DNA from: Thermoplasmatales archaeon
Lineage (GTDB): Archaea > Thermoplasmatota > E2 > DHVEG-1
Length of the DNA: 34,115 nucleotides
Assembly (NCBI GenBank): GCA_023128855.1
Contig: JAGMDE010000001.1
Span: forward strand, 1-34,115
Reading direction: 5' to 3'
Shown: positions 11,415-29,122 of the stretch, one piece after another
Numbering within the stretch: position 1 is the first letter of the stretch
Layout: each line of letters opens with the position of its first letter
Notes under the pieces: model-generated
What the model saw: the letters and a program-made list of their open reading frames with translations, nothing else
Database searches by the model: none
What the model was told of the DNA's origin: nothing
Position numbers and translations under genes: made by a program

Positions 11415-12797
11415 ATGAAAGTTGTTCTAACAACATCCCCAACAAGAATTAAAGGAACAAAAGTTCAACCATTAGGTTTAGCTTATCTTGCAGCATCTGC
11501 TGAACAAGCTGGACATAAGATAAAAATAATTGATGCAATGATTATGAATTACAGTTTTGAAGACATCCATAAAGAAATCGCACATTTCGACCCGGATGTG
11601 CTTGGAGCAACCTCTTGGACACAAAATATTTACGATGTCCTAAAAATAATTAAAAGATCTAAGGAAAATAATCCTAATTGTATCAGCATTCTTGGTGGTT
11701 CGCATTCATCACTTATGGCAAAAGATATTCTAAACGAAAATGAATTTGTTGATATAATTGTCAGAGGGGAAGGTGAAAAAACATTTGTAGAAATTCTTGA
11801 AAAAATTGAAAAAAACCAAGATTATTCAGTTGTTGATGGAATCACCTTTAGAAATAATGGAAAAGTAATTGAAAATAAAAATAGAGAAAACATAAAAGAT
11901 TTAGATATTTTGCCTCTTCCAGCATATCATCTTCTCCCAATGAAAGAGTATACTGTTAAGTATAGGCCATTTGACTATGAAATGGTGGGTGATTTAGGGG
12001 ATCAATACTGTGCTATTTCTACATGTAGAGGATGCCCTTACAACTGTATTTTTTGCTCATCTCGAGCTTTATGGGGAAGAAATTGGAGGGCAAGAAGTGC
12101 ACAAAATGTCATTGAAGAAATCAAGATTTTAAATGATAAATACAAGGTAAAGGTAATTGACTTTATGGATGATACTGGTACGATAGACAAAAAACGGATT
12201 TTAAAAATATGCAAATTAATTAAAAAAGAAAATTTTGATGTTTTATGGACTGCAGGTACAAGAGTAGATCTTTTTGATAAAGAAATTGCAAAATCCTTTA
12301 AAACAGCAGGATGTAGCTTAGCAAGGCTCGCTCCTGAATCAGGAAATCAACGTTCCCTTGATTTTTTACAAAAAAGTTTCACAATAGAAGATGTTAAAAG
12401 AGCTATAAAAATCGCAAAAGATGCAGAATTGAATACTAGTGGAAATTTCATAATTGGAATTCCTGGTGAAAACAGAAAAATGATTAACCAAACAATCAGC
12501 TTTGCTAAAAAACTTAACCTAACTCATACAACTTTTTCAATTTTAGATCCACTTCCCGGAACAAAAATTTATGATATTGCCGTACAAAATAATCTCTTAT
12601 TAACAAAAGATTGGTCAAAATATACACCAATGCATTCTGTTTTAAAGCTAAAAAACTTCAACCCGAAAGAACTAGAAAAGCTTTTAATAAAAGCTTTTCT
12701 AATTTGCTGTTGGATCAATCCAAGAAAGTCCCCCAAAATATTGAAAAGAGATCTAATTCAGCTATTAAAATTCAAAAAACGTCATTTGAATGTTTGA
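11415..12797 (+). CDS. cobalamin(B12)-binding-domain radical SAM enzyme (class B)
   Basis: The N-terminal Rossmann-like B12-binding region (KVVLTTSP...LGLAYLAASAEQAGHKIKIID...ILGGSHSS) is followed by the radical SAM cluster motif CRGCPYNCIFC (CxxxCxxC). A TATA-like TTTTAAATAT lies ~15-20 nt upstream of the ATG. Confidence 0.9.
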   Translation: MKVVLTTSPTRIKGTKVQPLGLAYLAASAEQAGHKIKIIDAMIMNYSFEDIHKEIAHFDPDVLGATSWTQNIYDVLKIIKRSKENNPNCISILGGSHSSLMAKDILNENEFVDIIVRGEGEKTFVEILEKIEKNQDYSVVDGITFRNNGKVIENKNRENIKDLDILPLPAYHLLPMKEYTVKYRPFDYEMVGDLGDQYCAISTCRGCPYNCIFCSSRALWGRNWRARSAQNVIEEIKILNDKYKVKVIDFMDDTGTIDKKRILKICKLIKKENFDVLWTAGTRVDLFDKEIAKSFKTAGCSLARLAPESGNQRSLDFLQKSFTIEDVKRAIKIAKDAELNTSGNFIIGIPGENRKMINQTISFAKKLNLTHTTFSILDPLPGTKIYDIAVQNNLLLTKDWSKYTPMHSVLKLKNFNPKELEKLLIKAFLICCWINPRKSPKILKRDLIQLLKFKKRHLNV

Positions 12798-14599
12798 TCG
12801 ATATGATAAAATAAATCCTTATACATTTGTACAGCATGATATTCAGCATGTTCAATGTCAAATGGATTTTCTGATAAATCAAATCTTATCTTTGAATTAT
12901 TTTCAATAGATTTTTCTATAAGTTCAATAAACATTTTATAAAAGTTAGGATTATATTTTGTTAGAGATAAAGATTTGAAAAATGATGAGTCTATATTTGG
13001 TTTAAATTTTAAGTCTAACAAAGCCTGAAAATATTTTTTTGCATCTATAGGTTTGTTAATAGCCATATATAAGAATGGTAGAATGTGAAATAAATTTATT
13101 AGTTGACTACAATTTCCTCTATTCACATAAAAGTTATAGTAGTAAAGATCAGTTGATAAATATTTTTCTAGATTTTCAATTAAAGCTCTTATTTGATTTT
13201 TATTTTTAATCCAATTATCGTCTTTTATATAGTTGTAAAAGTCTTTTATGCCATAAAGATAGTTAATTCTTTCCTGAAAACCATTAATTTTTACAATTTT
13301 TTTAATAAAAAGATCAATATCAGTAGAAACAGAAGGAATAACTACTCTAACTGTAGGAAATTGTAAGATTTTATGAGTATAGTCTACCACCTGTAAATCC
13401 CATTTATTTTTTTTACAAATATCAGTAATTCTCTTAACATCATCAAAACTGTCGTTATTTTCCACACTATTTAAAGTATCAAAATCAATAATTTTCCCCT
13501 TCTCTAAAAAAGAAAGATTTCCATAGAAATCATAATATCTGGTAAAGTATTTGTAAGGTTTATCTACACCAAAATACTCTTTTCCAAGTTTTTTTACCCA
13601 AATATCATATAAAACTTTAGCGGCCTTTTGTTCAAAAACTTCTTTTCTATCTAAGTGAACAGTTTGAAAATATTCTACGAAACATCTCATTATAGCTTCA
13701 TGCAGATTGATATGAGCGCCTGCATTTACTCTTTTATAATTCCGTTCTTTTATCAATTTATTACTGCTATTTTTCAAGTTCTTATTTATAAATAAAACTC
13801 CTATAACAGGTAGACCTTTTGCTAAGGAAAAGTCCTTAATTATTACATCGATATTTAAAGAATCAAAAAGCTTAATGCAATCAAGTATTTGTTTGTTTTT
13901 TATGGATTCTGGATCGATAGTTGAGCTTTGAGTTTTTTCTGAAAATAATCTACTTGCAGCATAACGTTCAAAAATCTCAAAGGATGCTTGTGCGATGGCT
14001 TCTTCATGGGTATTACCTGCAGCTATACCATTTGATAAACTAATTAGTTCAACTAAATGTATCGGAAGTTTGATATATTTTTCATCCACAATTGAATAAG
14101 CATCTACTATGCAATCCATAAACCCTTCGTTTTTATATAATTCAAATGTTTCTTTAGTCAAATTCTCTTGAAAAAATGTATTAACGTATTGAAAATTAGT
14201 GCATAAACTATTGACCTCTTTTGAAAACCCTTTCAAAAAGTTTCTACTATTAACATTTTTTAATATTTTTTCATATTCCTCAGCATTTTCAGATAATGGA
14301 ATTTTTATCTCTAAAAAACATGCAGAAAACCTTTCAGCAAGCTCAGCATATGCACTTGCTTTAGCAAGATTGCTAGAAAAGCCTTTTCCATGTTGAGCCC
14401 ACCCCAATATATCTATTAAAGCACTTCCAACAAATATTTTAAAGTCTGAAGAGCTTATATTATCTTCTTTATAATTAATATCAAAACCAATTTTTTTAAA
14501 ACCATTTTTTATTCTTTTTATTGTATTTTTAGGAACATCACATTTATAATTTTGATATATTTTTGGAGACTGAGAAAGTTTCATTAAAACCATTATCAA
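12782..14599 (-). CDS. YcaO-domain protein (ATP-dependent amide backbone-activating enzyme family) with an uncharacterised ~270-aa C-terminal extension
   Basis: YcaO-type motifs GKGFSSNLAKASAYAELAERFSA and SNGIAAGNTHEEAIAQASFEIFERYA. Its 3' end overlaps the radical SAM gene by 16 nt (convergent). Confidence 0.85.
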   Translation of the reverse strand: MIMVLMKLSQSPKIYQNYKCDVPKNTIKRIKNGFKKIGFDINYKEDNISSSDFKIFVGSALIDILGWAQHGKGFSSNLAKASAYAELAERFSACFLEIKIPLSENAEEYEKILKNVNSRNFLKGFSKEVNSLCTNFQYVNTFFQENLTKETFELYKNEGFMDCIVDAYSIVDEKYIKLPIHLVELISLSNGIAAGNTHEEAIAQASFEIFERYAASRLFSEKTQSSTIDPESIKNKQILDCIKLFDSLNIDVIIKDFSLAKGLPVIGVLFINKNLKNSSNKLIKERNYKRVNAGAHINLHEAIMRCFVEYFQTVHLDRKEVFEQKAAKVLYDIWVKKLGKEYFGVDKPYKYFTRYYDFYGNLSFLEKGKIIDFDTLNSVENNDSFDDVKRITDICKKNKWDLQVVDYTHKILQFPTVRVVIPSVSTDIDLFIKKIVKINGFQERINYLYGIKDFYNYIKDDNWIKNKNQIRALIENLEKYLSTDLYYYNFYVNRGNCSQLINLFHILPFLYMAINKPIDAKKYFQALLDLKFKPNIDSSFFKSLSLTKYNPNFYKMFIELIEKSIENNSKIRFDLSENPFDIEHAEYHAVQMYKDLFYHIDQTFK

Positions 14600-14891: not shown

Positions 14892-17297
14892 CTAATATTG
14901 TAGTCCTAATCGTAGTAGTAAACGTTGTAGTATTGGGAACGCATTTGGAAACCGCTCTAAGAGTCTCATGAAGAATGTATAGGGTATTAGTTTACTTCTT
15001 GGCATTGTGACTTCTAATGGATTTGACCAAGGACTCTCTGCACCATAATCATCTTTAACTCTACAATATAAAGTATAAGTTCCTTCCTTCTCCCATTTAT
15101 GAGATGCACTAGCAGTTTCACCAGAAGGAATCGGACCAATATATGTATTTGACCCATCTTTCCAATTGAAATCATATGTTAATTCATCACTCTCAACATC
15201 AGTAGTACAACTGGTATAAGTATATGTTTCCCCAACCGTTCCCTTTGTTGGACCATCAAAAGAGGGTTTAAATGGAGGATTGCCCACGCTATTCACAATA
15301 ATGGATTTCGCATCAGAAATCGGACTTAAAGCGCCATGCTCATCTTGAGCTATCACACGACATTGATATGTTTTATGTTCATAATCATACCAATTCCAAA
15401 TAAGCTCATATGTCTCACCAGAATTATAGAGCGTACCAAATGGTTCCATATAATCTTTCCCAAAGACGATCACATAACATAATTTATCAGAATCAGGATC
15501 TGTTGCAGAAGTAGAATATGTATAATCATGCCATTCTCTAGCATAATTTGGAGCATTAAGTGTACTAGTTTTAGATGGAGCTGTATTTAAAACTCCCATA
15601 GAGGTAATAAGTTCTCCTTCATATTCATCCAAGAGGACAGGATGAAAATCATTATCTGTAAAATAATCGAGATAATCAAGCACCATTGGTTCAGCGTAAT
15701 TAAATAACTCTTCTGCGGTTATGTCATCATCAGCGTTATTATCAGCAGCTCCATATAATCCTGAACAGATATATTGTGTAAATAAGCCTCCATTGTACCC
15801 AAGAATGTTATGAGATATTGTTGTTTCATCTGATCGACATGCCATAAGTATTACCCTGTTATCGCCAGCAAGAGTTTGAGCAAACTTTTCAGCCCATTCA
15901 TCATGATACATACCATATCCATCAGGCATTCCACCACTATGACAACAATCAAGAATTACAATTAATGATCCCTCAAACCTCTCTAAATCTTCTGCAAATT
16001 CATAATCCCACCATTTTTCATCATTAAATAATACCATCCATTGATTTGTTCCATCATCACCACCATGGCCACTAAAATAAATCAAAGAGACATCATTAGA
16101 ATCCTCATTATCATCTAACCATCCAAGAGCATCATCGCGAATAGCAGATTTTGTACATTGACTTTTTTTCAAAATTTCCATCTGAGAATCAGAAAACCAG
16201 TTTGCTCCAAACATCAAGGCATCCTTAATATGATCAACATCAAGGTCAGAACCAAGGCTCTCGTCAACACCGATAAGGACACTATTATAATTTATATCCC
16301 CCATGTTATAAACATATACATTCACAGTATCGTTATCAGAATAAAGTTCTCTATCAAAACTTCTTGCATAGATAGTATATCGCCCATTTGGAAGACCTGT
16401 AGTATCCCATTCATATGTCCAAGATGTTGTACCAGTTGCTGTCTCCCAATTGCCAAGAAGATCTATTTTAACTTCAACATATTCAAGGTTTCCCTCAGGG
16501 TCATTAGCATTCCCAGTGATTGTTATTGTCCCACTTACTGTTTGTCCTTCCACGGGATAGGTTATTTCAACAGTTGGCAGTTGATTTCCATACTGGGTTA
16601 TCCAGAAATCATCAATATAAAAGTCTTGAGTGGCCAATCGAAAGGCCTCTATATGCCAAATTTCTATACCTATCTCCACCGGGTGTCTAAATCCTCCAAC
16701 AGCGTCAATAGAATCGTCATGAAATAAATGTACTTCATCTGCAGTTATCGTAAATTCCTCTTCAATCCACCTAGTTGTTGATGGATCAATATGTGGAACG
16801 AATTCTTGAAAAACATTACCATCGTGCCATCGAATCTGTCCAGTCCTTCTATGAATATTAACAACGCCACCGGTACCATGCTCCGTAAAGTCTTCATAAA
16901 TTGTTGCTTGCATACTTAAATCTGGTGAATATATTCTATAATGAATAACATAACTCCCAGGTGGTCCAAAATACATTTGACGCAAGCTGCAATATTTGTC
17001 TGGATCTGCACTTGAACCATGAATCTTCATTACCATATTATCTGGGTCTAAGGGATCAATACATGCCTCAATGTATTGATTTTCAGTTATCCCGTCTGTT
17101 GACCATCCTCTTTCTGCTTTAGGTGATTCACCAACATTGTAATCATCGAAATCATCATACCTTATGTAAGTTCTTAATTGGTTACTGGTGGTTGTAATTT
17201 TTCCAATATCCCCACTAATACTTGGTAAAATACTTGCTCCAAGGAATAGGATTATTATTCCTATTACCAATCCTTTTCTAAAAACATTTTTTGTCAT
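14892..17297 (-). CDS. large secreted clan-CD (caspase/legumain-like) cysteine peptidase with Ig-like and PKD-like domains
   Basis: N-terminal signal/anchor (GLVIGIIILFLGASILPSISG). His-Gly and Cys catalytic dyad context (LIYFSGHGGDDG ... LIVILDCCHSGGM). An Ig-like module (TVEITYPVEGQTVSGTITITGNANDPEGNLEYVEVKI) and two C-terminal PKD-like units (..CRVIAQDEHGALSPISD.., ..YCRVKDDYGAESPWSNPLEV). GGGAGAGGT SD upstream. Confidence 0.8.
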   Translation of the reverse strand: MTKNVFRKGLVIGIIILFLGASILPSISGDIGKITTTSNQLRTYIRYDDFDDYNVGESPKAERGWSTDGITENQYIEACIDPLDPDNMVMKIHGSSADPDKYCSLRQMYFGPPGSYVIHYRIYSPDLSMQATIYEDFTEHGTGGVVNIHRRTGQIRWHDGNVFQEFVPHIDPSTTRWIEEEFTITADEVHLFHDDSIDAVGGFRHPVEIGIEIWHIEAFRLATQDFYIDDFWITQYGNQLPTVEITYPVEGQTVSGTITITGNANDPEGNLEYVEVKIDLLGNWETATGTTSWTYEWDTTGLPNGRYTIYARSFDRELYSDNDTVNVYVYNMGDINYNSVLIGVDESLGSDLDVDHIKDALMFGANWFSDSQMEILKKSQCTKSAIRDDALGWLDDNEDSNDVSLIYFSGHGGDDGTNQWMVLFNDEKWWDYEFAEDLERFEGSLIVILDCCHSGGMPDGYGMYHDEWAEKFAQTLAGDNRVILMACRSDETTISHNILGYNGGLFTQYICSGLYGAADNNADDDITAEELFNYAEPMVLDYLDYFTDNDFHPVLLDEYEGELITSMGVLNTAPSKTSTLNAPNYAREWHDYTYSTSATDPDSDKLCYVIVFGKDYMEPFGTLYNSGETYELIWNWYDYEHKTYQCRVIAQDEHGALSPISDAKSIIVNSVGNPPFKPSFDGPTKGTVGETYTYTSCTTDVESDELTYDFNWKDGSNTYIGPIPSGETASASHKWEKEGTYTLYCRVKDDYGAESPWSNPLEVTMPRSKLIPYTFFMRLLERFPNAFPILQRLLLRLGLQY

Positions 17298-17515
17298 ATG
17301 TTTCTACCTCTCCCTAATTATAAAATTAGCGTGATTGTAATATATTATTCTGTTTTAAATGTATTCATAACAATTGTTAAACGTAACAAAATGTTATAAA
17401 AAACCCTGGGTTTTTTGCATTCTGATTTCATTTACTTCAGTTTAGGCATCAACCTAAAACTCTCTCCAAAAATGTTAATATTTAAACATAGATTATTTGG
17501 AATAAATGGTGTATT

Positions 17516-19354: not shown

Positions 19355-19921
19355 ATGAAAAAACAATTATTGATAGTTGGAATAACGTTGGTATTGTTAG
19401 CTGTTGGACTAAGTGGCTGTAACGAAAAAAGCACAGATACTGCAACAACGCTAGTTCAGTTTGTGAAGGATGATATTGCTAATACGCTGACTGTGGATGC
19501 TACTACTTCTAGTGATATTTTATGGAGTGATATTTATTTTGATGGTAATTGTGATACTAGAGGTCTTGGTCTTGGTACTTATGTTGTTGTTGGTGATGTG
19601 ATTCCTCATTGTTATGGTACGATTACTATTTATTATATGCCTGAGGAGGTGAAAGAGATTGTGTTGGATGTTTTTGAGTTTTCATCGGAACCTCGTCCTA
19701 GTATTGCGTGTGTTGAAGATAATAGCGCTAGGACTTTGACTGTGGTTAGTGCTTTTCCTTATGATCTTTTATGGAGTGATCTCAATATTATAGGTTCGTG
19801 TGATACTTCAGGTTTAAATGGCAATATTGAAGCAGGAGATCAAATTACAAATTGTTCTGGAAATATAATAATTGTGCTAATATCAACAGATTTAATACTC
19901 GGTAATTGGGATTTTACATAA
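19355..19921 (+). CDS. surface lipoprotein with two copies of a ~75-aa Cys-pair beta domain
   Basis: Lipobox signal MKKQLLIVGITLVLLAVGLSGC. Internal duplication: ..LTVDATTSSDILWSDIYFDGNCDTRGLGLGTYVVVGDVIPHCYGTITI.. and ..LTVVSAFPYDLLWSDLNIIGSCDTSGLNGNIEAGDQITNCSGNIII.. Conserved leader gttatgaaattgtaatattGGAGGAGG. Confidence 0.85.
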   Translation: MKKQLLIVGITLVLLAVGLSGCNEKSTDTATTLVQFVKDDIANTLTVDATTSSDILWSDIYFDGNCDTRGLGLGTYVVVGDVIPHCYGTITIYYMPEEVKEIVLDVFEFSSEPRPSIACVEDNSARTLTVVSAFPYDLLWSDLNIIGSCDTSGLNGNIEAGDQITNCSGNIIIVLISTDLILGNWDFT

Positions 19922-19923
19922 GT

Positions 19924-20067
19924 TTATAGTTTTGGCATCAACCTAAAACTAACCTCTGAAGGTTGAGGTTCATCAACCCAGTCATCTAAACAACGCTGAA
20001 TCAGCCTGCGTGATTGCCAATATGAGTCGTGTTTATTTTTATATTTTTCAAGAAGTTTCAGTAGTTG
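19924..20067 (-). pseudogene. C-terminal remnant of a second copy of the multi-HTH gene (compare 25061..25783)
   Basis: Own translation of the open minus frame: QLLKLLEKYKNKHDSYWQSRRLIQRCLDDWVDEPQPSEVSFRLMPKL*. The intact gene reads ..CKLLDRFNKKHEDYCSSRRLIQRSIDDWIDDEASDYVGESFRLMQKQ*. There is no start codon, and an in-frame stop lies at 20068-20070. Confidence 0.7.
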
Positions 20068-20277
20068 CTAAGGTAAAAAATGAGGAAGAACGAGTCTCTA
20101 ACAGGAGAGAAAATGGTAAAAGGACTAAACGGTTTTTGACATGTTTGCTTATGTGAATCTGCGAAGGAATGATGTTTTTCTGTCAAAACCTATGAAAATG
20201 TTAATATGTTCATAGTTAGATGTAATATTGTATATAAGAACAGATGTTATGAATTGTAGATCGGAGGAGGCATAGAT
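20061..20277 (+). promoter_or_regulatory. conserved Q/P module: promoter-like region and leader of cassette unit 2
   Basis: Repeated at 14721-14860 (Q part) and 21873-21987 (P part). Contains aaaacctatgaaaatgttaatatgttcatagtt (TATA-like) and the leader gttatgaattgtagatcGGAGGAGGcatagatATG. Confidence 0.6.
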
Positions 20278-20631
20278 ATGAAAAAACAAATCATAATTAT
20301 TGGAATAATGCTGATGTTGTTAGCTGTTGGATTAAGTGGTTGCACTGACCAAAGTGGAGAAAGCAAATTTGTTGGAACTTGGACATATACTGGGGGTGAT
20401 TTCTATTATGATACTCTTCATCTTTATTCGGATGGGGTATTAAGTGGAATTAGTCGCTTCAATCCTGATTATGCTCCTGCCGATCCAGGTACTTGGGAAG
20501 CTAATGATACTCATTTAATTCTCCATTTCACCGATTTCGATGATCTTATATATAGTTACAAATTTACCAGCAGCGACACACTTGTTTTAACTGCATCATG
20601 GGGAGATACAGGCATCTACAAGAAATCATAA
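20278..20631 (+). CDS. small surface lipoprotein, lipocalin-like domain
   Basis: Signal MKKQIIIIGIMLMLLAVGLSGC. The mature part (FVGTWTYTGG..LHLYSDGVL..GTWEANDTHLILHF..YSYKFTSSDTLVL) parallels the N-terminal domain of the 21988 product. Confidence 0.85.
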   Translation: MKKQIIIIGIMLMLLAVGLSGCTDQSGESKFVGTWTYTGGDFYYDTLHLYSDGVLSGISRFNPDYAPADPGTWEANDTHLILHFTDFDDLIYSYKFTSSDTLVLTASWGDTGIYKKS

Positions 20632-20677: not shown

Positions 20678-21785
20678 ATGAGAAAGACCGCAATAGGACT
20701 AATTATGTTTTTGATAGGAATGTTTATCTTATCTACAATAAACATTAATTGCCTAGGGTATCAACACCCAGATGATGTAGTACACATAGAAATTCCACAA
20801 CAAGGTGAAATATGGCATAGGGGAGAAACCCATGAAATAAAATGGAGGTGCGTTGGTTCAAATGCTTTTCGTCCTACAAGATGGGATGTTTATCTGGTTT
20901 TTGCAGACACAAGGTCCCCACAATATGAACTTTATCAAAAAGAACGAATTAAGTTAGCAACTGTTGATTATGATTATAATTATGATGGAAACTACACATG
21001 GACAATACCATTGGACTTGCCTGAGTCGTCATCGGATGGGTATTCTTTTGATATTGAAGGAACTGATCGCTGGGATTTCTATGGATCTGGAGGCAGCATC
21101 TACATATTAGACCCAGGTGAAGAATTAGTCACTTCTCCCGATGATGAGTATTGGCTTTCAAGAGCAATTATGTCTGAAGCAAGTGTGGGAACACAACAGG
21201 AGCAAATAGCAGTTGGATGGTGTGTGCTAAATAGATTTAATGACGGACGGTTTGGAGATTCTTTGGAAGGAGTTATATATGACGGATTTGCATATAATCA
21301 ACAACCAACACAACAAATAAAAGAATTGGCAAACGAAATTCTTAAGGGATTACATCCTGATCCAACTGACGGAGCAGTATTTTTCTTTTCACCCAGGAGT
21401 ATGCCAAAAGAGGGAGAGAATACAACGGGTTATGATGTTGGCGGAGGACCTCATACTTACTGTGCCTGGAACATCAAATAGAGTCTATTTTCCATATTGG
21501 GCGAAACCGACTGAAGAAATAAACGAAAATACCCAATCATATCAAATCTTAACTGAATATGGTTATGGAGATATGGAATGGCGAGAATTAAATGGTATCA
21601 GAAATTGGTATTTCATGTTTTATCATCCAATATCGTCACAGTATGAATCTGAAGAGATCGGTGAGCCAAATGATGGTACAATCACAGGAACAAGTGCTGA
21701 CGGCACTCCTGGCTTTGAAATGATATTTGTTTTCTTGGCAGTAACATTGTTATTATTCTGGAAAAGAAAAAGTAAAAACCTATAG
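20678..21785 (+). pseudogene. SleB-like cell-wall hydrolase with Kre9/KNH-like N-domain and PGF-CTERM anchor, broken by a +1 frame change (ORFs 20678..21481 and 21432..21785)
   Basis: ORF1 has a signal peptide (MRKTAIGLIMFLIGMFIL), a beta-sandwich-like IEIPQQGEIWHRGETHEIKW, and a Hydrolase_2/SleB-like LSRAIMSEASVGTQQEQIAVGWCVLNRFNDGRFGDSLEGVIYDGFAYNQ. It stops at 21481. ORF2, in the next frame, has no signal peptide but ends in GTPGFEMIFVFLAVTLLLFWKRKSKNL (PGF-CTERM). Confidence 0.7.
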
Positions 21786-21987
21786 CTTTGGCATCAATCT
21801 AAAACTAGTGTCACCATTCTCCTTGCTTTGGTATCAACCTAAAACTCTCTCCAACATACTCGATTTAATAGAGAATCTGAGAAGGAAGGAGCTTTTACTG
21901 TTAAAACCTATAAAAAAATTAATATGTTCATAGTTCGATACAATATTGTCTATAAGAATAAATGTTGTAGATTGGGGAGGAAAAAAT
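21786..21987 (+). promoter_or_regulatory. two tandem boundary cores plus the conserved P module and leader of cassette unit 3
   Basis: GGCATCAATCTAAAACT (21790-21806) and GGTATCAACCTAAAACT (21830-21846). They are followed by gaatctgagaaggaagg...aaaacctataaaaaaattaatatgttcatagtt...GGGGAGGaaaaaatATG, which aligns with 20155-20277. Confidence 0.65.
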
Positions 21988-22926
21988 ATGAAGAAACAAT
22001 TATTAATAGTTGTAATAACGCTGATATTATTGGCTGTTGGGCTTAGCGGCTGTAACGAAAAAGGCATAGATATATTAGGAAAGTCAAATGAAGAAAAGAT
22101 TTTAGGAACGTGGGGTATAGTGGTGTCAGAAGATGAAGAAACACCAATATATAGTTTCTTTTCTAATGGAACGTTTTCTGTATCTGCTATGATGCCTGAT
22201 TTTTGGTCAAAGTCTGCCACTAGACAAACTATTTGGGGAACATATGTAATGACTGATGAAACATTAGCTATGAATCGAAAAGGGGATGCAAAGGCTTTTG
22301 AATATTCTTTTTCTGATAATGGTAAAAAACTTACATTAATAGATGTAGAGCAGGGGGGTCAATTCGCCGTTCTCACAAAATACGATTCACCACCACAAAT
22401 ACCATCAATACAGTTTATTAAAAATGATATAGGCTACATATTCACATTAACTGTTTCAGCCGTAGACCCATCAAATGTACCATGGAGCAATATCGAAATA
22501 ACAGGTACATGTGATACATCTGGTCTTGGCACCTATGTCGCTGTGGGCGATATGATAACAGATTGTTCAGGTACATTAACTATAAGAGATGTGTCAACAA
22601 ATATCTTGCTAGGTTCTTGGACATTATCAGGTTCTCTTGCTCCTAATCTTGCTTGGACGTTAAATGATGCAGAGGATACAATTACAATTACTTCTGGGTC
22701 TTCTTCGGATACTTATGGGGCTTCGTCTACTGATGGTAATCTAATGTTTAAGTCACCAGAAGGTACTTATTATGTAAAAGCTGATTTATCCCTTAGTACG
22801 TTAGAAACTGGATTGTCTACTGCACCTATTTCTGCAGGTGATATTATTTCAGGATTTTCACCAGGTACATGGCATATAATTTGGGTTCCAACTGATAAAT
22901 TACTTGGTACGTTGGATTTTAGTTGA
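21988..22926 (+). CDS. mosaic surface lipoprotein (lipocalin-like domain plus Cys-pair beta domain plus a degenerate third domain)
   Basis: Signal MKKQLLIVVITLILLAVGLSGCNEK, nearly the same nucleotides as the 19355 signal. A domain like the 20278 product (ILGTWGIV..FFSNGTF..WGTYVMTDETLAM..YSFSDNGKKLTL), then a domain like 19355 (..LTVSAVDPSNVPWSNIEITGTCDTSGLGTYVAVGDMITDCSGTLTI). I trimmed the start to the ATG at 21988; the track starts at 21946, inside the leader. Confidence 0.85.
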   Translation: MKKQLLIVVITLILLAVGLSGCNEKGIDILGKSNEEKILGTWGIVVSEDEETPIYSFFSNGTFSVSAMMPDFWSKSATRQTIWGTYVMTDETLAMNRKGDAKAFEYSFSDNGKKLTLIDVEQGGQFAVLTKYDSPPQIPSIQFIKNDIGYIFTLTVSAVDPSNVPWSNIEITGTCDTSGLGTYVAVGDMITDCSGTLTIRDVSTNILLGSWTLSGSLAPNLAWTLNDAEDTITITSGSSSDTYGASSTDGNLMFKSPEGTYYVKADLSLSTLETGLSTAPISAGDIISGFSPGTWHIIWVPTDKLLGTLDFS

Positions 22927-22962
22927 AAAGGTGGTTATGAAATTGTAGTTTGAGGGAGTAAA

Positions 22963-23871
22963 ATGAAAAAAAATGAATATGTAAGAGAAAAAGAGGTAAA
23001 AAAGTATAAAGGTAAGATTATCGGGAAGATATTTGCAATTTCTATTGCTTTTATAGTTGTTGGAAGTTGTCTAGCATTATATCTCTCGATGAATGGGTTA
23101 GAGACAAATAATCTAGAGGATTATGAAATCACTACTATTACGTCTCTGTCACCCCTCCCTATTGTAAGTGGAATTGATGGGAATACGTTTTTGGAAGACG
23201 AGGCTGGAATATCTGCATATACAAATGTTGAAGGCGAAATAAATCTTGGACTAGCAAAAACTGCATTCAGAACGATAGAATATGAAACCAATGAATACAT
23301 AATTGGGTCTATTCCACTTCCAGATTATTCAGAGACGGAGGACGTCCACTGCTATGTCCATAAGGACGGATGGGTGGTATCATATTACTTAAAGGAGGAA
23401 CCAGCAGCAAAGATAGTCGATTGGGAGAATTATGGTACAGATGAACAAATAACTGGAACGAAACTCGAACAAAGCATAGTTGTAGTTTGCGATGCTGCAG
23501 GTGTCATAAAAGGAGAGGTTCAGTATTATGATTATAGGTATCCAAATGCAAATAAACTTATGATTGTTGCAGAGGCATTGTGGGAGTCTACTGAAACAGA
23601 TACATTTGATATAATACTGCCAGATGATTTCGTATTTTATGAGCGGTCATATTCGCATTGTAATAGATATACATCCTCAAGTAGTTATTCTCGCATGTAT
23701 ATCGACGAAGAAGAGATTAGTCGGATATATGGTAGTGAGACAAACTATGATCTGCTTTCACCTTCGAAGCTTTCACCTGATGTATCACATTCTATAAAAA
23801 CCACTTCGTATCATTGTTACAATGAGATGGGTGTATTCAGTGCTATCGTGCTTGTGTATCAGGAGACATGA
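22963..23871 (+). CDS. N-terminally membrane-anchored extracellular protein, unknown function
   Basis: GAGGGAG SD, conserved leader ggttatgaaattgtag, and a single N-terminal TM (IFAISIAFIVVGSCLALYL). Confidence 0.75.
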   Translation: MKKNEYVREKEVKKYKGKIIGKIFAISIAFIVVGSCLALYLSMNGLETNNLEDYEITTITSLSPLPIVSGIDGNTFLEDEAGISAYTNVEGEINLGLAKTAFRTIEYETNEYIIGSIPLPDYSETEDVHCYVHKDGWVVSYYLKEEPAAKIVDWENYGTDEQITGTKLEQSIVVVCDAAGVIKGEVQYYDYRYPNANKLMIVAEALWESTETDTFDIILPDDFVFYERSYSHCNRYTSSSSYSRMYIDEEEISRIYGSETNYDLLSPSKLSPDVSHSIKTTSYHCYNEMGVFSAIVLVYQET

Positions 23872-23921
23872 GAGGAGAAGATGAGGAAACTGCTATGAGA
23901 AGATAATTTATAAGGTGAAAA

Positions 23922-25058
23922 ATGAAAATAAAAATAATGCTTTTAATTGTAATTTTTCTAATTGTCACTCAAATAACAGTAGTAAGTGCATCACGAATCA
24001 TTGTTCAGAATGCTGATACTGTTTGGGAGACAATTCCTAAATATTCATCAGGTTTAACCCATGCAGCTACGGGTGTAACACCAAGAGTAAAAGCAGAATA
24101 TGCAAACTCGTTATCTCAGCATAATTTACAAGATTCGGAGAGTTTAAATCAGTTAGCCAGTGGAATTTCTTCGAGGATAATAGTAGAATATGCGAACTCT
24201 GTTTCTGATTTTGACTTGTATCGACCTGATTTTATACAGGCACCATCGTCAGAACCTGAAACGCAACCCGAAAATATTATTCCAACTGAAGATCCGTTCA
24301 ATTATCAAAGTGAATATGAACTAAATGAGGAGAAGTTGAGAGCTGAAGAAATAGAAGCTCTTCCAATTGTTATGAACTATGCAAATGAATACCATATAAG
24401 TCCTGCTTTGATAATGGCTATTATTAGGCAGGAAAGCAATTTTATTGCAAATGCAAATGGTAATGATTATATCGGCTACATGCAAGTAAGCTGGGATGCA
24501 GCTACCCATCAAAGTATAGAGGATATGACAAGTGACGAATATAAAGGAACAAAGAGTGATTGGTTGAGCGAAGGAAAAGATCCTGACCTAAATATTATGT
24601 ATGGTACTCGCTACCTCAGAATTTTAAATATTATTTTTGAAGAGGGAAAATTTTTATACGACTCAGTATCTGCAACCAAAGTCTCTGATATACAGGAGCG
24701 TTTAAATTTTGTATTAGCAGCCTACAACGGAGGACAAGGGAGAATAGCCAACGCTCAAAAGATTGCTAAAGAAAATAATAAAGATCCTACCAAATGGGAT
24801 GAAGTAAAAGAATATTTAGAGGAAGCTGGCGCTAATACTGCCAAAGCAATAGAAATTAAAAACTATGTATATGGGGTAATAAAAGGTAGAGATATAATAG
24901 ATGATGAACAGAGAGGTTATGAGTTTTTCTTAACGATTCGAGTTTTTCCATCTGATAAAGCATCAGACAGTGAAGAAGGTACTCCTGGATTTGAATTATT
25001 ATTTTTCATTGTAGCAATTGCACCTATCCTGTTATTAAAACGAAAAAGAAAAATATAA
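23922..25058 (+). CDS. lytic transglycosylase (SLT/GH23-like) domain protein with PGF-CTERM anchor
   Basis: Signal peptide. Three copies of an SRIIV(E/Q)(Y/N)A(N/D)SV-like motif. SLT signature ISPALIMAIIRQESNFIANANGNDYIGYMQV (candidate catalytic Glu codon at 24432-24434) and LAAYNGGQGRI. The C-terminus is EEGTPGFELLFFIVAIAPILLLKRKRKI. Confidence 0.85.
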   Translation: MKIKIMLLIVIFLIVTQITVVSASRIIVQNADTVWETIPKYSSGLTHAATGVTPRVKAEYANSLSQHNLQDSESLNQLASGISSRIIVEYANSVSDFDLYRPDFIQAPSSEPETQPENIIPTEDPFNYQSEYELNEEKLRAEEIEALPIVMNYANEYHISPALIMAIIRQESNFIANANGNDYIGYMQVSWDAATHQSIEDMTSDEYKGTKSDWLSEGKDPDLNIMYGTRYLRILNIIFEEGKFLYDSVSATKVSDIQERLNFVLAAYNGGQGRIANAQKIAKENNKDPTKWDEVKEYLEEAGANTAKAIEIKNYVYGVIKGRDIIDDEQRGYEFFLTIRVFPSDKASDSEEGTPGFELLFFIVAIAPILLLKRKRKI

Positions 25059-25060
25059 AT

Positions 25061-25783
25061 CTATTGTTTTTGCATCAACCTAAAACTCTCTCCGACATAA
25101 TCTGATGCTTCATCATCTATCCAATCATCAATAGAACGCTGAATTAGACGTCTACTACTGCAATAATCCTCATGTTTCTTGTTGAATCTGTCAAGAAGTT
25201 TACATTGATCTTTATTTGAGATTTTAATACCAAGCAGATAACTAAGCTCTTCTATTGCACTGTAACTTATGATTCGGTCGGGTTTCTCCTTGAAAAAGGC
25301 CTCGATAGTTTGCTCTTCTCGCCCAGGGAGATAAAAAAATGTTTTGTTCTTGTATCTTGCTGTTCTTATTATTGGAAACTTATGCTGCAAGATTCTTACA
25401 ACTTGCACATTAAAATCAGAAATCAAATAACCATCAGACATAAGCCTACATAGAAGCTTAATTCCATTCTTTCTAATAATATGATTTCCTTGAGACCTAT
25501 ACCCTTCTATTCCTCTTGTAAGATTATACACAGTGCCAATGTTCAAACCACATAGTTGCGCTGCTTCTGCCTTTGTATGTCCTTCTTTTATTGCTTTAAC
25601 TACTTTGTTTCTAGTTTCTATTGGGATTTTCTTTGATTGATAGAGATATTTGCATCTGTTGTATATCGTACTTCGATGAACATTGTATTTATCTGCAAGG
25701 TCTTTGACTTCATGCCCTTCATTGATAAGTTTAGCAATATGCTCACAGTCTTCTTTTGTAAGCTTTTTTCTTCTTGTCATCAT
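25061..25783 (-). CDS. multi-HTH DNA-binding protein (two resolvase/IS630-type HTH motifs plus a winged-helix-like region); only intact copy of a repeated gene
   Basis: HTH1 LTKEDCEHIAKLINEGHEVKDLADKYNVHRSTIYNRCK; HTH2 TRNKVVKAIKEGHTKAEAAQLCGLNIGTVYNLTRG. I could not recognise a DDE or recombinase catalytic motif. I trimmed the start to the ATG at 25783; the track uses a GTG at 25801. TTTTAAATA lies ~25 nt upstream on the minus strand. Confidence 0.8.
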   Translation of the reverse strand: MMTRRKKLTKEDCEHIAKLINEGHEVKDLADKYNVHRSTIYNRCKYLYQSKKIPIETRNKVVKAIKEGHTKAEAAQLCGLNIGTVYNLTRGIEGYRSQGNHIIRKNGIKLLCRLMSDGYLISDFNVQVVRILQHKFPIIRTARYKNKTFFYLPGREEQTIEAFFKEKPDRIISYSAIEELSYLLGIKISNKDQCKLLDRFNKKHEDYCSSRRLIQRSIDDWIDDEASDYVGESFRLMQKQ

Positions 25784-25839
25784 TTGAAAAAGCGAAAGCA
25801 CTAGTATTTAAAAGTGTTGAAAAGGACTGGGAAACTCTA

Positions 25840-26908: not shown

Positions 26909-27022
26909 ATGGAAGGAAAAACATTAACGGTAATTGGATTGAGTGTATTGCTTGTCTTATCCGTATTTTCTGGATGTGTTGACAATGACTTCTTCTGGAA
27001 GAATGCGACTAACGATGATTAG
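26909..27022 (+). CDS. lipoprotein signal-peptide stub (37 aa), possibly a truncated gene remnant
   Basis: Own translation: MEGKTLTVIGLSVLLVLSVFSGCVDNDFFWKNATNDD. AGAGAGGAAAA SD. It overlaps the 3' end of the convergent gene 26957..28141 by 66 nt. Confidence 0.3.
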   Translation: MEGKTLTVIGLSVLLVLSVFSGCVDNDFFWKNATNDD

Positions 27023-28141
27023 CTGATGTAAATGCCATATCCACTCATATACTCTAAGAAAAACCACTCTAATTTTATGATAAAGCGGCACAATTATTGA
27101 GTGGGGTTCGAGAATTTCACCAGTTGCAGGGATTTTAAAGTTAACAGGAAGAGGACGCTCTCCATTGTTTCTATTTTCCGCATCGATAATCTCAATTCTA
27201 CAAAAAGGGCCTATTCTGTCGTCATGTGCATAAAACTCTTTTATTCTCAACCCTTTTAATGGATAATAAAAATCAGCTTTTGGAATCGTCTCTGTCTTGT
27301 TACAAATTTTATCTTCTATTCTGTATCCAGAAACCGTTATTGAGTGTAAACCGACTCCTACAACATCAACGTTTAATATTATAGGAATGCCCATTTTCAG
27401 ATATGAATATATGAAGCTTACAATAGGTAAAGGATTTGTTTTTGGTGCATATTTAATATTCCTTACATGGGGCTCCAATCCAACTTCATGAATTGCCTGG
27501 CACATCTGCATAATATTTAAACCGCCACTAGGGATTGGTCTTGAGCCGAACCAGTATTGTGTGGCAAATTTTGTTATTTCAATCGGAGTGGGGGACAAAC
27601 ATTGATCGAATATCTCTGACGTTTTGTGGAATGCAGACCAAAGTGCGCTTGTTGCACAAGCTGCCGCTACTGTATCCTGTTCTTGAAATGCAAGACTGTT
27701 TATTGAAAGAGGGATGCCGTATAGGTTAACATCGTATTTTCTATTGCAACAATATTGCCTTTTGTCACCATCAAGAAGATAGGTTTTTAATGCTGTTCTG
27801 CCAAAAATCGCTTCTGGCAATGGTTTAACAACGAGGAATCCTAAATAATTTTCTTGAAGGGTTGTTGTACTGATTTTTGTCTCCTTTCCACACAGAAGCG
27901 ATATAAATTCCTTTTTTTCAAAAGCAATATCCTTGAAGAAGTGAAGTCTTCTGCAAAATCTATCATAATCTGTCGAACATCGAACGTAATAATTTGAGAA
28001 ATCTATTAAAAAGTCTCTGTCGACATATTTGCGTTCGGCCAAAATCAATTTACAATTTATCTTATCAAGATAATCATGCATATATTTAAAGTGGGCGTCA
28101 GGATAGTTTTCATTTGGAGTTACTTTCCATTCAAAAATCAA
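26957..28141 (-). CDS. predicted papain-fold-like cysteine peptidase (tentative), 394 aa
   Basis: A long ORF with non-repetitive composition. Candidate nucleophile context FQEQDTVAAACATSALWSAF (Q-x6-C), downstream VGVGLHSITVSGY (His) and YAHDDRIG (Asp). The track start is a TTG with no SD; the first in-frame ATG is codon 21. The functional call is weak. Confidence 0.55.
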   Translation of the reverse strand: MIFEWKVTPNENYPDAHFKYMHDYLDKINCKLILAERKYVDRDFLIDFSNYYVRCSTDYDRFCRRLHFFKDIAFEKKEFISLLCGKETKISTTTLQENYLGFLVVKPLPEAIFGRTALKTYLLDGDKRQYCCNRKYDVNLYGIPLSINSLAFQEQDTVAAACATSALWSAFHKTSEIFDQCLSPTPIEITKFATQYWFGSRPIPSGGLNIMQMCQAIHEVGLEPHVRNIKYAPKTNPLPIVSFIYSYLKMGIPIILNVDVVGVGLHSITVSGYRIEDKICNKTETIPKADFYYPLKGLRIKEFYAHDDRIGPFCRIEIIDAENRNNGERPLPVNFKIPATGEILEPHSIIVPLYHKIRVVFLRVYEWIWHLHQLIIVSRILPEEVIVNTSRKYG

Positions 28142-28303
28142 GTTATTGTCTAGCTTAAGAGCGGTTTTGAAATTTTCCTCTGAAAAAGGAAAAATTACAA
28201 ATGGATTAATCTCAGCATTACCAAAATCTGGAATGGTTACTCCTCCTTAGCCAATGAAGAATTATTATACAGTAATTATTTGACGAAGCGTATTTTCGTC
28301 GAC

Positions 28304-29122
28304 ATGAAGAGAATCGTCTATGCTTTTTCTAACGATTCGTTTTGGTATTCAAAAAAAGTAGCTTTTTGGATAAGTTATCATGGTTTATTTATGGATTTTT
28401 TTAAAAGATTTATAGTGAAACACCCTTTGTGGCACAAATTTTTCCTGCCAGATTCATATTGGTATCCATTAGAGGATGCATTGTCAGGTTTACTATTTGG
28501 TGGAATATGTTCAGCACAGGCAAATCTACAAGTAGCTCTTTTTAGAGCGAGGGGAATACCTGCCAGAATATTAATTGCATCAACTCTGCACTTTGGAAAA
28601 GAAAAATGGATGGATTCGCAACATTATATTGTCGAATTCTATTCGATAAAAAACGGATGGATAAAAACTCAAGCCGGACGTATTCCAACCTTGGAAGAAA
28701 GAAACATAATTCTCAGAATTGTTGATACTGAAGAGGAAGAAATTGCAGGCAATGGACTTAGTAAATATGGTGGTATGCCAAGATGGTTTTGGTTTAGCAA
28801 TGAAAACGTTATTTTCTATGTCACAAAACAATATATGGATTTTAAACTTCCAAAAACAAAAAAGATAGGTTTTCCACTAATAAAAGCAGGAATTGAAGAA
28901 CAAATTGAAATACCTTCAGAAAAAGCGAATAAAATTATTAAAATAGCCAAAGAGAATTGGAATCTTTTTCTAAATGCTAATGGTGAGAGTAAACCAGATG
29001 ATGAAACAAAATTTAAACAAGTATCATCTTTACAAATGAAAGCTTTAGAAATGTTAATAAACTATAAATTTGAAGATTTTGTAAGAACAATGAATGATAT
29101 TAAAAAATGTTTGTCTTGTTGA
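28304..29122 (+). CDS. transglutaminase-like superfamily cysteine protease/acyltransferase
   Basis: Core motif GGICSAQANLQVALFRARGIPARILI (Cys), followed by QHYIVEFY (His). I trimmed the start to the ATG at 28304; the track uses a TTG at 28280. Confidence 0.75.
   Translation: MKRIVYAFSNDSFWYSKKVAFWISYHGLFMDFFKRFIVKHPLWHKFFLPDSYWYPLEDALSGLLFGGICSAQANLQVALFRARGIPARILIASTLHFGKEKWMDSQHYIVEFYSIKNGWIKTQAGRIPTLEERNIILRIVDTEEEEIAGNGLSKYGGMPRWFWFSNENVIFYVTKQYMDFKLPKTKKIGFPLIKAGIEEQIEIPSEKANKIIKIAKENWNLFLNANGESKPDDETKFKQVSSLQMKALEMLINYKFEDFVRTMNDIKKCLSC

Follow-up and report, generated by a model that had tools for sequence, protein, structure and literature searches.

We analysed a 34,115-nucleotide stretch of DNA from a Thermoplasmatales archaeon (GenBank assembly GCA_023128855.1, contig JAGMDE010000001.1, positions 1 to 34,115 of the forward strand; hereafter the window, whose numbering is used throughout) and found two genes for bacterial-type murein-cutting enzymes, each with a predicted membrane-tethering signal at the C-terminal end: an intact gene for an SLT-domain lytic transglycosylase of glycoside hydrolase family 23 (GH23) type, and a SleB-like Hydrolase_2 gene that is probably a pseudogene in this population. 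The initial annotation, made from the sequence, had suggested that the archaeon may display murein-degrading enzymes on its own surface. The SLT protein does have the layout of an exported, C-terminally tethered enzyme, but in this genome the SLT enzyme alone is intact. The intact gene comprises the following elements:

23922..25058, + strand: SLT gene, an intact open reading frame (ORF) of 378 amino acids (aa), predicted surface lytic transglycosylase
24375..24785, + strand: SLT (GH23-type) core, aa 152-288, the Pfam match, with motifs E-S, GYMQV and AAYNGG
24984..25055, + strand: SLT tail, PGFELLFFIVAIAPILLLKRKRKI, a predicted tripartite sorting signal

Profile search of the SLT protein returned Pfam SLT (PF01464) at 58.3 bits (cut-off 21.3, E 7e-16) over aa 152-288, and the motifs on which the initial annotation had based its SLT/GH23 call are present (IIRQESNF; GYMQV at aa 185; AAYNGG at aa 266). 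The catalytic Glu171 is encoded by GAA at 24432-24434. In a phmmer search against PDB sequences, IIRQESNF pairs with IMQTESSF of Escherichia coli MltC, which sets Glu171 opposite the MltC Glu; in MltC entry 4cfo a Gln replaces that Glu in an otherwise identical aligned sequence, which fits an engineered active-site mutant, and inactive Glu-to-Gln mutants are named in related MltE and Slt structure entries. Across 27 SLT homologs, conservation reaches at least 90% at E171, S172, G185-Y-M-Q188 and G271. The AlphaFold2 (AF2) model shows a compact fold with a predicted local distance difference test (pLDDT) score above 90 across aa 121-345, for which Foldseek gave MltF, MltC, MltE and Slt as top structural matches (prob 1.0; TM-score 0.61-0.66 to MltE, normalised to MltE), followed by goose-type lysozymes. 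NCBIfam models gave partial likeness to MltF, MltC and EmtA, with scores far under their equivalog cut-offs. By its domain, the protein is a predicted family-1 lytic transglycosylase, and an identical protein is already annotated at NCBI as 'transglycosylase SLT domain-containing protein [Thermoplasmatales archaeon]'.

From the N-terminus, the SLT protein reads as a signal peptide (aa 1-23, MKIKIMLLIVIFLIVTQITVVSA; hydrophobic and ending VSA/S), a disordered stretch (aa 24-118), the folded domain (aa 121-345), a linker of about 10 residues and the P-G-F-type tail. The roughly 100 residues N-terminal to the SLT fold are modelled by AF2 as disordered. This region (23991-24281) holds a repeated motif (SRIIVQNA / PRVKAEYANS / SRIIVEYANS) that is shared with P0022, a protein without an SLT domain, at 62% identity over that part. 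In neither the SLT nor the Hydrolase_2 protein did Pfam or NCBIfam searches at E<=0.1 find a LysM, PG_binding, SH3 or similar domain.

The second gene is interrupted within its catalytic domain:

20678..21481, + strand: Hydrolase_2 gene, 5' part, 267 aa; signal peptide, low-confidence immunoglobulin (Ig)-like domain and the first three quarters or so of a SleB-like Hydrolase_2 domain
21454..21461, + strand: frameshift, caused by a 4-bp tandem duplication (TACT TACT), past which the Hydrolase_2 gene continues in the +1 frame
21462..21785, + strand: Hydrolase_2 gene, 3' part, in the +1 frame; conserved end of the catalytic domain, linker and PGF-type tail, with PGF from 21708

The 267-aa product carries the motifs from which a SleB/Hydrolase_2-like signature had been called and matches Pfam Hydrolase_2 (PF07486) at 45.2 bits (cut-off 27, E 1.5e-11), over only positions 5-81 of the 100 in the profile; the match corresponds to 21197-21409, and the codon of the catalytic Glu167 lies at 21176-21178. 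The 20678 frame ends with GGGPHTYCAWNIK at a premature stop (21479-21481), and the G-T-P-G-F tail, DGTPGFEMIFVFLAVTLLLFWKRKSKNL followed by a stop, sits in the +1 frame within an ORF at 21432..21785. The initial statement that both reading frames end in G-T-P-G-F is thus right for the SLT gene and wrong for the 20678 frame, which stops at 21481, and the Hydrolase_2 catalytic domain is not complete in any single reading frame. Deleting one TACT yields GGGPHTVPGTSNRVYFPYWAKP, resembling the intact orthologs (GGGIHTVPGTTDKVYFPSWAKP), and a 367-aa protein colinear with them. Two intact metagenomic orthologs, P0029 and P0030 (382 and 385 aa), align over 100% of the fused query, read GYDVGGGIHTVPGTTDKVYFPSWAKPT across the junction and lack the duplication. 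At the junction, orthologs read CATACAGTGCCTGGA (locus L005) and CATGTGGTGCCTGGA (locus L008) and the window reads CATACTTACTGTGCCTGGA; the corresponding DNA is CAT-ACA-GTG-CCT-GGA and CAT-GTG-GTG-CCT-GGA in the orthologs and CAT-ACT-TACT-GTG-CCT-GGA in the window.

The part beyond the shift is itself conserved (VYFPYWA and W.EL.GIRNWYFMFYHP; in the alignment VYFPxWA and W.EL..I.N.YFMF.HP) and shares 74% identity with the C-terminus of P0029. The AF2 model of that ortholog, whose best PDB matches are the SleB domains 4f55 and 4fet (prob 1.0, TM-score 0.56-0.57), places the corresponding segment within its high-confidence domain (aa 165-333), so the encoded 267-aa product would lack several strands of the catalytic domain as well as the anchor. 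The repaired protein aligns with the same two SleB catalytic domains (E 0.002-0.007), with Glu167 (IMSEAS) opposite the Glu of 'YGESRGE', the catalytic residue of SleB; Glu167 is invariant in the ortholog alignments. Both domains are thus of types that cleave murein glycan, and the catalytic glutamates that the initial annotation had singled out for alignment both align, Glu171 with MltC and Glu167 with SleB. The SleB equivalog model TIGR02869 was not reached (43.4 bits against a cut-off of 236.5).

We found the identical frameshifted sequence in an NCBI contig of a metagenome-assembled genome (MAG; GCA_030640375.1, DAOWJJ010000111.1) and in the Logan assembly of SRR13892594. The window extends 318 nt beyond the end of that NCBI contig and so stems from a different assembly of the sample (ENA scaffold ZHAN22-2_SAMN18200505). 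A sequencing or assembly error was rejected as the simplest reading, because the lesion is a duplication of 4 bp in tandem and no homopolymer slip, and because two assemblies, possibly built from the same reads, agree on it. Among the matches listed from a search of 5.8 billion proteins, no intact allele was closer than 53% identity. The Hydrolase_2 gene is therefore probably a pseudogene in this population. NCBI annotates it as an ordinary 267-aa 'cell wall hydrolase', which carries a lesson for annotation: one of two lytic genes, a probable pseudogene, passes as an ordinary enzyme.

A six-frame scan of the whole 34 kb found two tails with P-G-F, a helix and basic residues, and these lie on the SLT and Hydrolase_2 genes. 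Both have the tripartite layout of P-G-F, hydrophobic helix and basic tail at the very C-terminus; in the SLT protein this is EGTPGF, 19 hydrophobic residues and KRKRKI, with a transmembrane helix predicted at aa 358-377 in the AF2 model. The Heimdall-CTERM model NF045529 (cut-off 24) scored the isolated SLT and Hydrolase_2 tails at 29.1 and 27.7 bits and the whole ORFs at 24.5 and 22.9 bits, and Loki-CTERM gave 18.5 and 15.6 bits (cut-off 19.9). As a control, the tails of the distant homologs P0019 and P0011 (EKGVPGFEVIFAIAGLLAVAYLLRRRK) scored 40.3 and 39.6 bits on the PGF-CTERM model TIGR04126 and 25-27 bits on Heimdall-CTERM; the latter model is not specific, because canonical PGF-CTERM tails match it too. 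Moreover, 17 of the 27 SLT homologs match Pfam PGF-CTERM (PF18204) at the position where the window tails sit, and the nearest relatives of the window proteins carry the same variant, GTPGFE...FWKRK, and match the Heimdall and Loki models only. Since homologs bear canonical PGF-CTERM at the same position and the control tails cross-match, we read the tails as a lineage variant of the PGF-CTERM sorting signal. The need for lineage-specific profiles for this short signal was noted earlier (PMC9723798). In Haloferax volcanii, processing of PGF-CTERM by the archaeosortase ArtA comprises cleavage and lipid attachment (summarised in PMC11980579). No archaeosortase gene was found on the approximately 45 kb of the MAG that were examined.

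The archaeal origin of the contig is indicated by its prefoldin, FtsY, KaiC-type ATPase, tryptophanyl-tRNA synthetase (TrpRS), YcaO and radical-SAM genes. For taxonomic placement, which the initial annotation had left to be done, we used TrpRS: it shares 82% identity with the enzyme of Thermoplasmatales archaeon SG8-52-3, whose MAG was recovered from White Oak River sediment and belongs to Thermoprofundales (MBG-D; PMC6461988), and the other named top matches are Thermoplasmatales or Thermoplasmatota. The host belongs to the Thermoplasmatota, probably to Thermoprofundales/MBG-D. A Heimdallarchaeal host, hinted at by the Heimdall-CTERM match, was rejected on the TrpRS comparison and on that model's cross-matches to canonical PGF tails. 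Bacterial contamination or a chimeric contig was likewise rejected, given archaeal housekeeping genes both here and on the contigs of distant homologs, and a prophage or viral origin found no PHROG hallmark, only a generic helix-turn-helix (HTH) match and an endolysin-type likeness of SLT. Neither tRNAs nor Rfam families were found in the window. The genomes of Thermoprofundales code for numerous extracellular peptidases, and these archaea are regarded as detritus degraders (PMC9585477, PMC6752024). Peptidoglycan-degrading enzymes are mentioned for them neither in their genome paper nor in the searchable literature, and bacterial-wall D-amino acids build up in sediments of the type they inhabit. 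To our knowledge, no cell wall of its own is known for this lineage.

Both enzyme families are small and almost confined to uncultured archaea. When 1.84 billion representatives were searched exhaustively by phmmer with the SLT module (aa 120-378), 525 matches reached E<=1e-3, but only 16 of them E<=1e-30. Among 185,579 species genomes, 40-55% identity to SLT was reached only in five loci of four archaeal MAGs, two of which loci adjoin ribosomal protein L15e, PheRS, Thi4 or ArsA/Get3-type genes; the next-best matches are bacterial SLT proteins at about 30-41% identity. The homologs share the SLT module and the tail, and their N-terminal parts vary (PD40/DPPIV_N or PQQ-type propellers, NosD/beta-helix), such that the catalytic module and tail are kept in about 20 proteins with differing N-terminal domains. 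In the Hydrolase_2 family, all 20 homologs match PF07486 and many tails are PGF-like; P0033 has an N-terminal lipobox in place of the PGF tail. Two Hydrolase_2 homologs, P0032 and P0034, bear a Peptidase_C15 (pyroglutamyl-peptidase) domain before the PGF tail, and another, P0047, bears an eCIS_core domain. The P0047 fusion hints at antagonistic use, those of P0032 and P0034 at catabolic use.

Between 19.3 and 25.1 kb every gene lies on the + strand, and the lytic genes have the following neighbours:

19355..19921, + strand: lipobox lipoprotein, paralog of the 117-aa one
20278..20631, + strand: lipobox lipoprotein of 117 aa (MKKQ...LLAVGLSGC), directly preceding the Hydrolase_2 gene
21988..22926, + strand: lipobox lipoprotein, paralog of the 117-aa one
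22963..23871, + strand: gene of a 302-aa protein that carries a membrane anchor at its N-terminus; ends 50 nt before the SLT gene
25061..25801, - strand: HTH gene, 246 aa, Pfam HTH_23, HTH_28 and HTH_7; convergent, its stop 2 nt past the SLT stop

The 302-aa protein is 80% identical to its counterpart directly upstream of the SLT ortholog in a related population (loci L003/L004) and, because it is conserved in this position, may be a functional partner of the transglycosylase. It has no Pfam, NCBIfam or PHROG match, and the idea that it is a split-off N-terminal domain of longer homologs was dropped when no similarity was found. The block 23089-25823 shares 84% DNA identity with L003, and the flanks differ. 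Orthologs of the HTH gene follow both the SLT ortholog (L003, 80% identical) and the intact Hydrolase_2 ortholog (L005/L006, 66% identical). As a general rule this pairing was rejected: across 50 additional metagenome loci, different genes take the convergent position, none of them SLT or Hydrolase_2, so the pairing is local. The HTH family comprises proteins of about 245 aa with two N-terminal HTH motifs (resolvase/IS630-like) and a C-terminal half without a recognised domain; its members include the window gene (25061-25801, - strand), L003 6690-7421, L005 1613-2386 and L090-L139. It is abundant in sediment metagenomes (50 loci, 52-78% identity) with highly variable neighbours, sometimes an IS66-type transposase or paralogs of the C14 peptidase described below, and may be a marker of regions that are variable or mobile.

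The 3' end of the HTH gene (compare 25061-25201) recurs in degenerate form at 17440-17467, 19918-20058, 21762-21806 and 21823-21861. The relics at 19918-20058 and 21762-21806 sit directly past the stop of a + strand gene, and the 21762..21861 pair comes directly after the Hydrolase_2 stop; the motif TTTGGCATCAACCTAAAACT occurs in 5 copies with at most one mismatch, against 0.02 expected. The simplest reading is tandem joining of modules made of surface-protein genes and an HTH gene, the inner HTH copies then being largely deleted. The lipoprotein encoded at 20278 is 51% identical to the gene product upstream of the intact Hydrolase_2 ortholog in L008/L009. All three lipoproteins share a near-identical signal peptide and lipobox and an upstream element of about 100 nt (repeats 20155-20362 and 21873-22072), and their mature parts differ; P0033, a Hydrolase_2 homolog with PD40, starts with the same N-terminus.

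The window also encodes an 801-aa exported protein (14892-17297, - strand) with Big_7, caspase-like Peptidase_C14 and PKD domains and a hydrophobic, basic C-terminus (ending FMRLLERFPNAFPILQRLLLRLGLQY) that is not a PGF tail; C14 paralogs lie near HTH-family genes in L134 and L135. The initial annotation had set a clan-CD peptidase and variable lipoproteins in the same locus as the lytic enzymes. The C14 protein and the three lipobox paralogs do exist, but the C14 gene is on the opposite strand, outside the cassette array. At 11415-14599, a B12-binding radical SAM gene (+ strand) stands tail to tail with a 605-aa YcaO gene (- strand), overlapping it by 16 nt; the two could act together in peptide modification, here in an archaeon that is not a methanogen. 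A 394-aa protein without a Pfam match (26957-28141, - strand) has Cys/His motifs (AACATSALWSA ... GLHSITVSGY) that recall papain-fold cysteine peptidases and adjoins a transglutaminase-core protein (28280..29122). Upstream of the window, the contig (L140 1-2032) encodes a NosD/beta-helix surface protein (812 aa) and a Peptidase_M28; with these two on the same contig, the region is rich in extracellular hydrolases.

We propose that these proteins are exported bacterial-type glycan-cutters held on the archaeon's own membrane and acting on bacterial murein. Precursors with an N-terminal Sec-type signal peptide and a C-terminal tail of P-G-F, helix and Lys/Arg residues would be exported by Sec, after which an archaeosortase-type enzyme would remove the helix and add a lipid, so that about 10 residues would separate the catalytic domain from the membrane surface. 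The SLT enzyme would then, as its family membership suggests, use Glu171 as single acid/base to cut the beta-1,4 bond between N-acetylmuramic acid (MurNAc) and N-acetylglucosamine (GlcNAc), that is MurNAc-beta-1,4-GlcNAc, and leave 1,6-anhydro-MurNAc ends. The SleB-like partner would make the same kind of cut, but is here broken by the 4-bp duplication, losing the last domain strands and the anchor. Since neither murein nor pseudomurein synthesis is known in Thermoplasmatota, the substrate would be foreign: bacteria living nearby or fragments of their walls. As to physiological role, we favour harvesting, in which a sediment archaeon that degrades detritus would draw on bacterial wall material, and hold the proposal as a whole with evenly divided confidence. 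Harvesting is favoured because of the lifestyle of the lineage, the co-located extracellular hydrolases (C14, M28, beta-helix) and the peptidase-type fusions of the homologs (PD40/DPPIV_N propellers, Peptidase_C15 domain), and because a tether keeps enzyme and products at the cell surface.

Several points weigh against this proposal. The signal peptides were called by eye. The initial annotation had named the tails PGF-CTERM anchors, which holds for their tripartite layout but not for the profiles: neither tail matches TIGR04126 (cut-off 24.5) even at E<=10, and on PF18204 the SLT tail scores 10.7 bits, under the cut-off of 18.8, and the Hydrolase_2 tail has no match. The top-scoring tail model is named for Heimdallarchaeota, and the host belongs to the Thermoplasmatota. 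Genes for muropeptide uptake or catabolism were not seen on the contig. Kept within about 10 residues of the membrane, the catalytic domain may be unable to reach intact sacculi, especially beneath an S-layer, and selection on the lytic function may be weak, since one of the two lytic genes is decaying. The patchy distribution and cassette-like context would also fit the arms-race pattern of antibacterial weapons (PMC12352652).

This last point leads to the main rival, contact-dependent antagonism or predation, in which the tethered SLT enzyme, and in relatives the SleB-like enzyme, would weaken the walls of touching bacteria. Archaeal peptidoglycan hydrolases have been demonstrated to kill bacteria (PMC12352652), the horizontally acquired Aciduliprofundum GH25 lysozyme is reported under the heading 'Antibacterial gene transfer across the tree of life' (PMC4241558), and GH23 transglycosylases of DPANN MAGs have been interpreted as predatory (PMC9723730). 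Members of the family are few and patchily spread (16 representatives at E<=1e-30 among 1.84 billion; 4 MAGs among 185,579 species genomes), the cassette array is variable and shows gene decay, patterns that Strock et al. take as arms-race turnover (PMC12352652), and one Hydrolase_2 homolog, P0047, has an eCIS_core domain. A lytic transglycosylase alone, however, cannot pass the Gram-negative outer membrane; its reach would be limited by the short membrane linker, and neither a toxin nor a pore-former, an injection apparatus or an immunity-like pairing was seen in the window. Archaeal weapons that have been validated are modular in build (PMC12352652), whereas no cell-wall-binding domain is present here, and the known ecology of the lineage is detritus degradation. 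The initial annotation had put contact-dependent antagonism or predation forward; this is possible but was overstated, as detritus lifestyle and peptidase-type fusions fit harvesting at least as well, and we regard it as unlikely. A stronger version, in which 17.4-25.8 kb would be a recombination hot-spot accreting and swapping surface-enzyme cassettes beside a conserved HTH gene, and Thermoprofundales-type archaea would breach bacteria on contact with its tethered murein-cutting enzymes, making it a contact-dependent antibacterial weapon island of a free-living archaeon, strikes us as a long shot.

Three further readings concern the substrate and the current role of the enzymes. That the true substrate is chitin, chito-oligosaccharides or another GlcNAc-rich polymer seems improbable to us. 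The SLT fold also matches chitopentaose-bound MltE and goose-type lysozymes, so the groove accepts GlcNAc chains, and the N-terminal domains of homologs (beta-helix/NosD, propellers) are general carbohydrate or protein binders; such catalytic domains can, according to Strock et al., cut bonds outside peptidoglycan (PMC12352652). Against this, the close structural and sequence matches are all murein lytic transglycosylases, and two distinct murein-specific folds, SLT and SleB-like, share a tail type and a locus, which indicates a common murein substrate. We also know of no non-murein substrate reported for SleB-type enzymes. It is more improbable still that the genes are decaying horizontal acquisitions from bacteria with no current role, the SLT gene simply not yet broken. 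One of the two genes is already frameshifted, relics of a neighbouring gene are scattered through the locus, and the nearest non-archaeal relatives are bacterial SLT proteins (about 30-41% identity). Yet over its full length the SLT protein is 83% identical to an ortholog from another population, with the catalytic motif retained, the composition is native (GC 0.36 against about 0.33 for the window), and the conservation of module and tail across about 20 proteins despite varied N-terminal domains points to selection over a long time within archaea. That the enzymes remodel a wall polymer of the host itself (pseudomurein or the like), which the initial annotation had offered as an alternative, is scarcely credible: beyond the presence of the domains nothing speaks for it, and no wall-synthesis genes were seen on the contig. 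The beta-1,3-linked N-acetyltalosaminuronic acid backbone of pseudomurein is no substrate for a lytic transglycosylase. Finally, the host belongs to the Thermoplasmatota, and pseudomurein is made only by Methanobacteria and Methanopyri (Strock et al., PMC12352652).

Compared with known systems, the window SLT protein is closest to the Gram-negative family 1 lytic transglycosylases MltC, MltE and MltF (GH23), which are its best sequence and structure matches and share the catalytic Glu and the E-S, G-x-M-Q and A-Y-N-x-G motifs; like them, it is predicted to be tethered to a membrane by a lipid, not released. The Mlt enzymes, however, carry an N-terminal lipobox, sit in the outer membrane and act on their own murein in growth and recycling, whereas the window protein belongs to an archaeon without known murein and has a C-terminal PGF-type anchor predicted to face it outward; it also has an additional C-terminal stretch that is conserved (aa 290-345), and identity to the Mlt enzymes is only about 20%. 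The Hydrolase_2 protein recalls the spore-cortex lytic enzymes SleB and CwlJ in its profile match, its aligned catalytic Glu and the SleB catalytic fold in the model of the intact ortholog. It differs from them in that it is not a SleB equivalog, lacks the N-terminal peptidoglycan-binding domain and has an insertion of about 40 residues in the domain, as well as in its Ig-like N-terminal domain, PGF-type anchor, archaeal host and frameshift. The tails share the tripartite C-terminus and position of canonical PGF-CTERM, but the window forms (GTPGFE...KRK, with FWKRK in Hydrolase_2) fall below TIGR04126 and PF18204 and pass Heimdall-CTERM only; canonical cargo is an S-layer or binding protein, whereas the cargo here is a predicted murein hydrolase, which, if active, would be a new and easily assayed one for archaeosortase sorting signals outside haloarchaea.

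Murein hydrolases in archaea are already established (PMC4241558, PMC9723730, PMC12352652), although it is only recently that such enzymes were shown to kill bacteria; what is new is the tethered form in Thermoprofundales-like archaea. We count this architecture as new because the survey of Strock et al. covered only soluble, modular enzymes, requiring a cell-wall-binding domain and listing SLT but not Hydrolase_2 or PGF-CTERM (PMC12352652), and because the searchable literature yielded no paper with both 'PGF-CTERM' and 'transglycosylase' and none with 'Heimdall-CTERM'. Neither window protein has the combination of catalytic and cell-wall-binding domain that defines the modular enzymes of Strock et al. 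2025. The finding is ecologically relevant and biochemically unsurprising: Thermoprofundales-like archaea are among the most widespread archaea of anoxic sediments, in which a large pool of carbon and nitrogen is stored as bacterial walls, and the enzymes, if active, would give sediment archaea a concrete route to consume or damage bacteria. The GH23 'lytic murein transglycosylases' of DPANN archaea (Woesearchaeota; PMC9723730) also come from uncultured archaea and are read as acting on bacterial walls, but they belong to a host-dependent lineage with no anchoring signal described, whereas the window belongs to a free-living sediment member of the Thermoplasmatota. Woldo and Danwoldo, peptidoglycan hydrolases that the archaeon Halogranum salarium secretes, are bactericidal (Strock et al. 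2025, PMC12352652). With the window enzymes, whose export is predicted, they share bacterial-type murein-degrading domains, export and a patchy distribution in murein-less archaea, a pattern that suggests horizontal acquisition, and the GH25 lysozyme of Aciduliprofundum (Metcalf et al. 2014, PMC4241558) is of the same kind: bacterial-type, patchy and exported. Woldo and Danwoldo are, however, soluble proteins exported by Tat or Sec with PG_binding or LysM modules, whereas the window proteins have no binding module and carry a predicted membrane-tethering signal, which would extend the range of archaeal wall-attacking enzymes to surface-displayed forms and to Thermoprofundales-like archaea.

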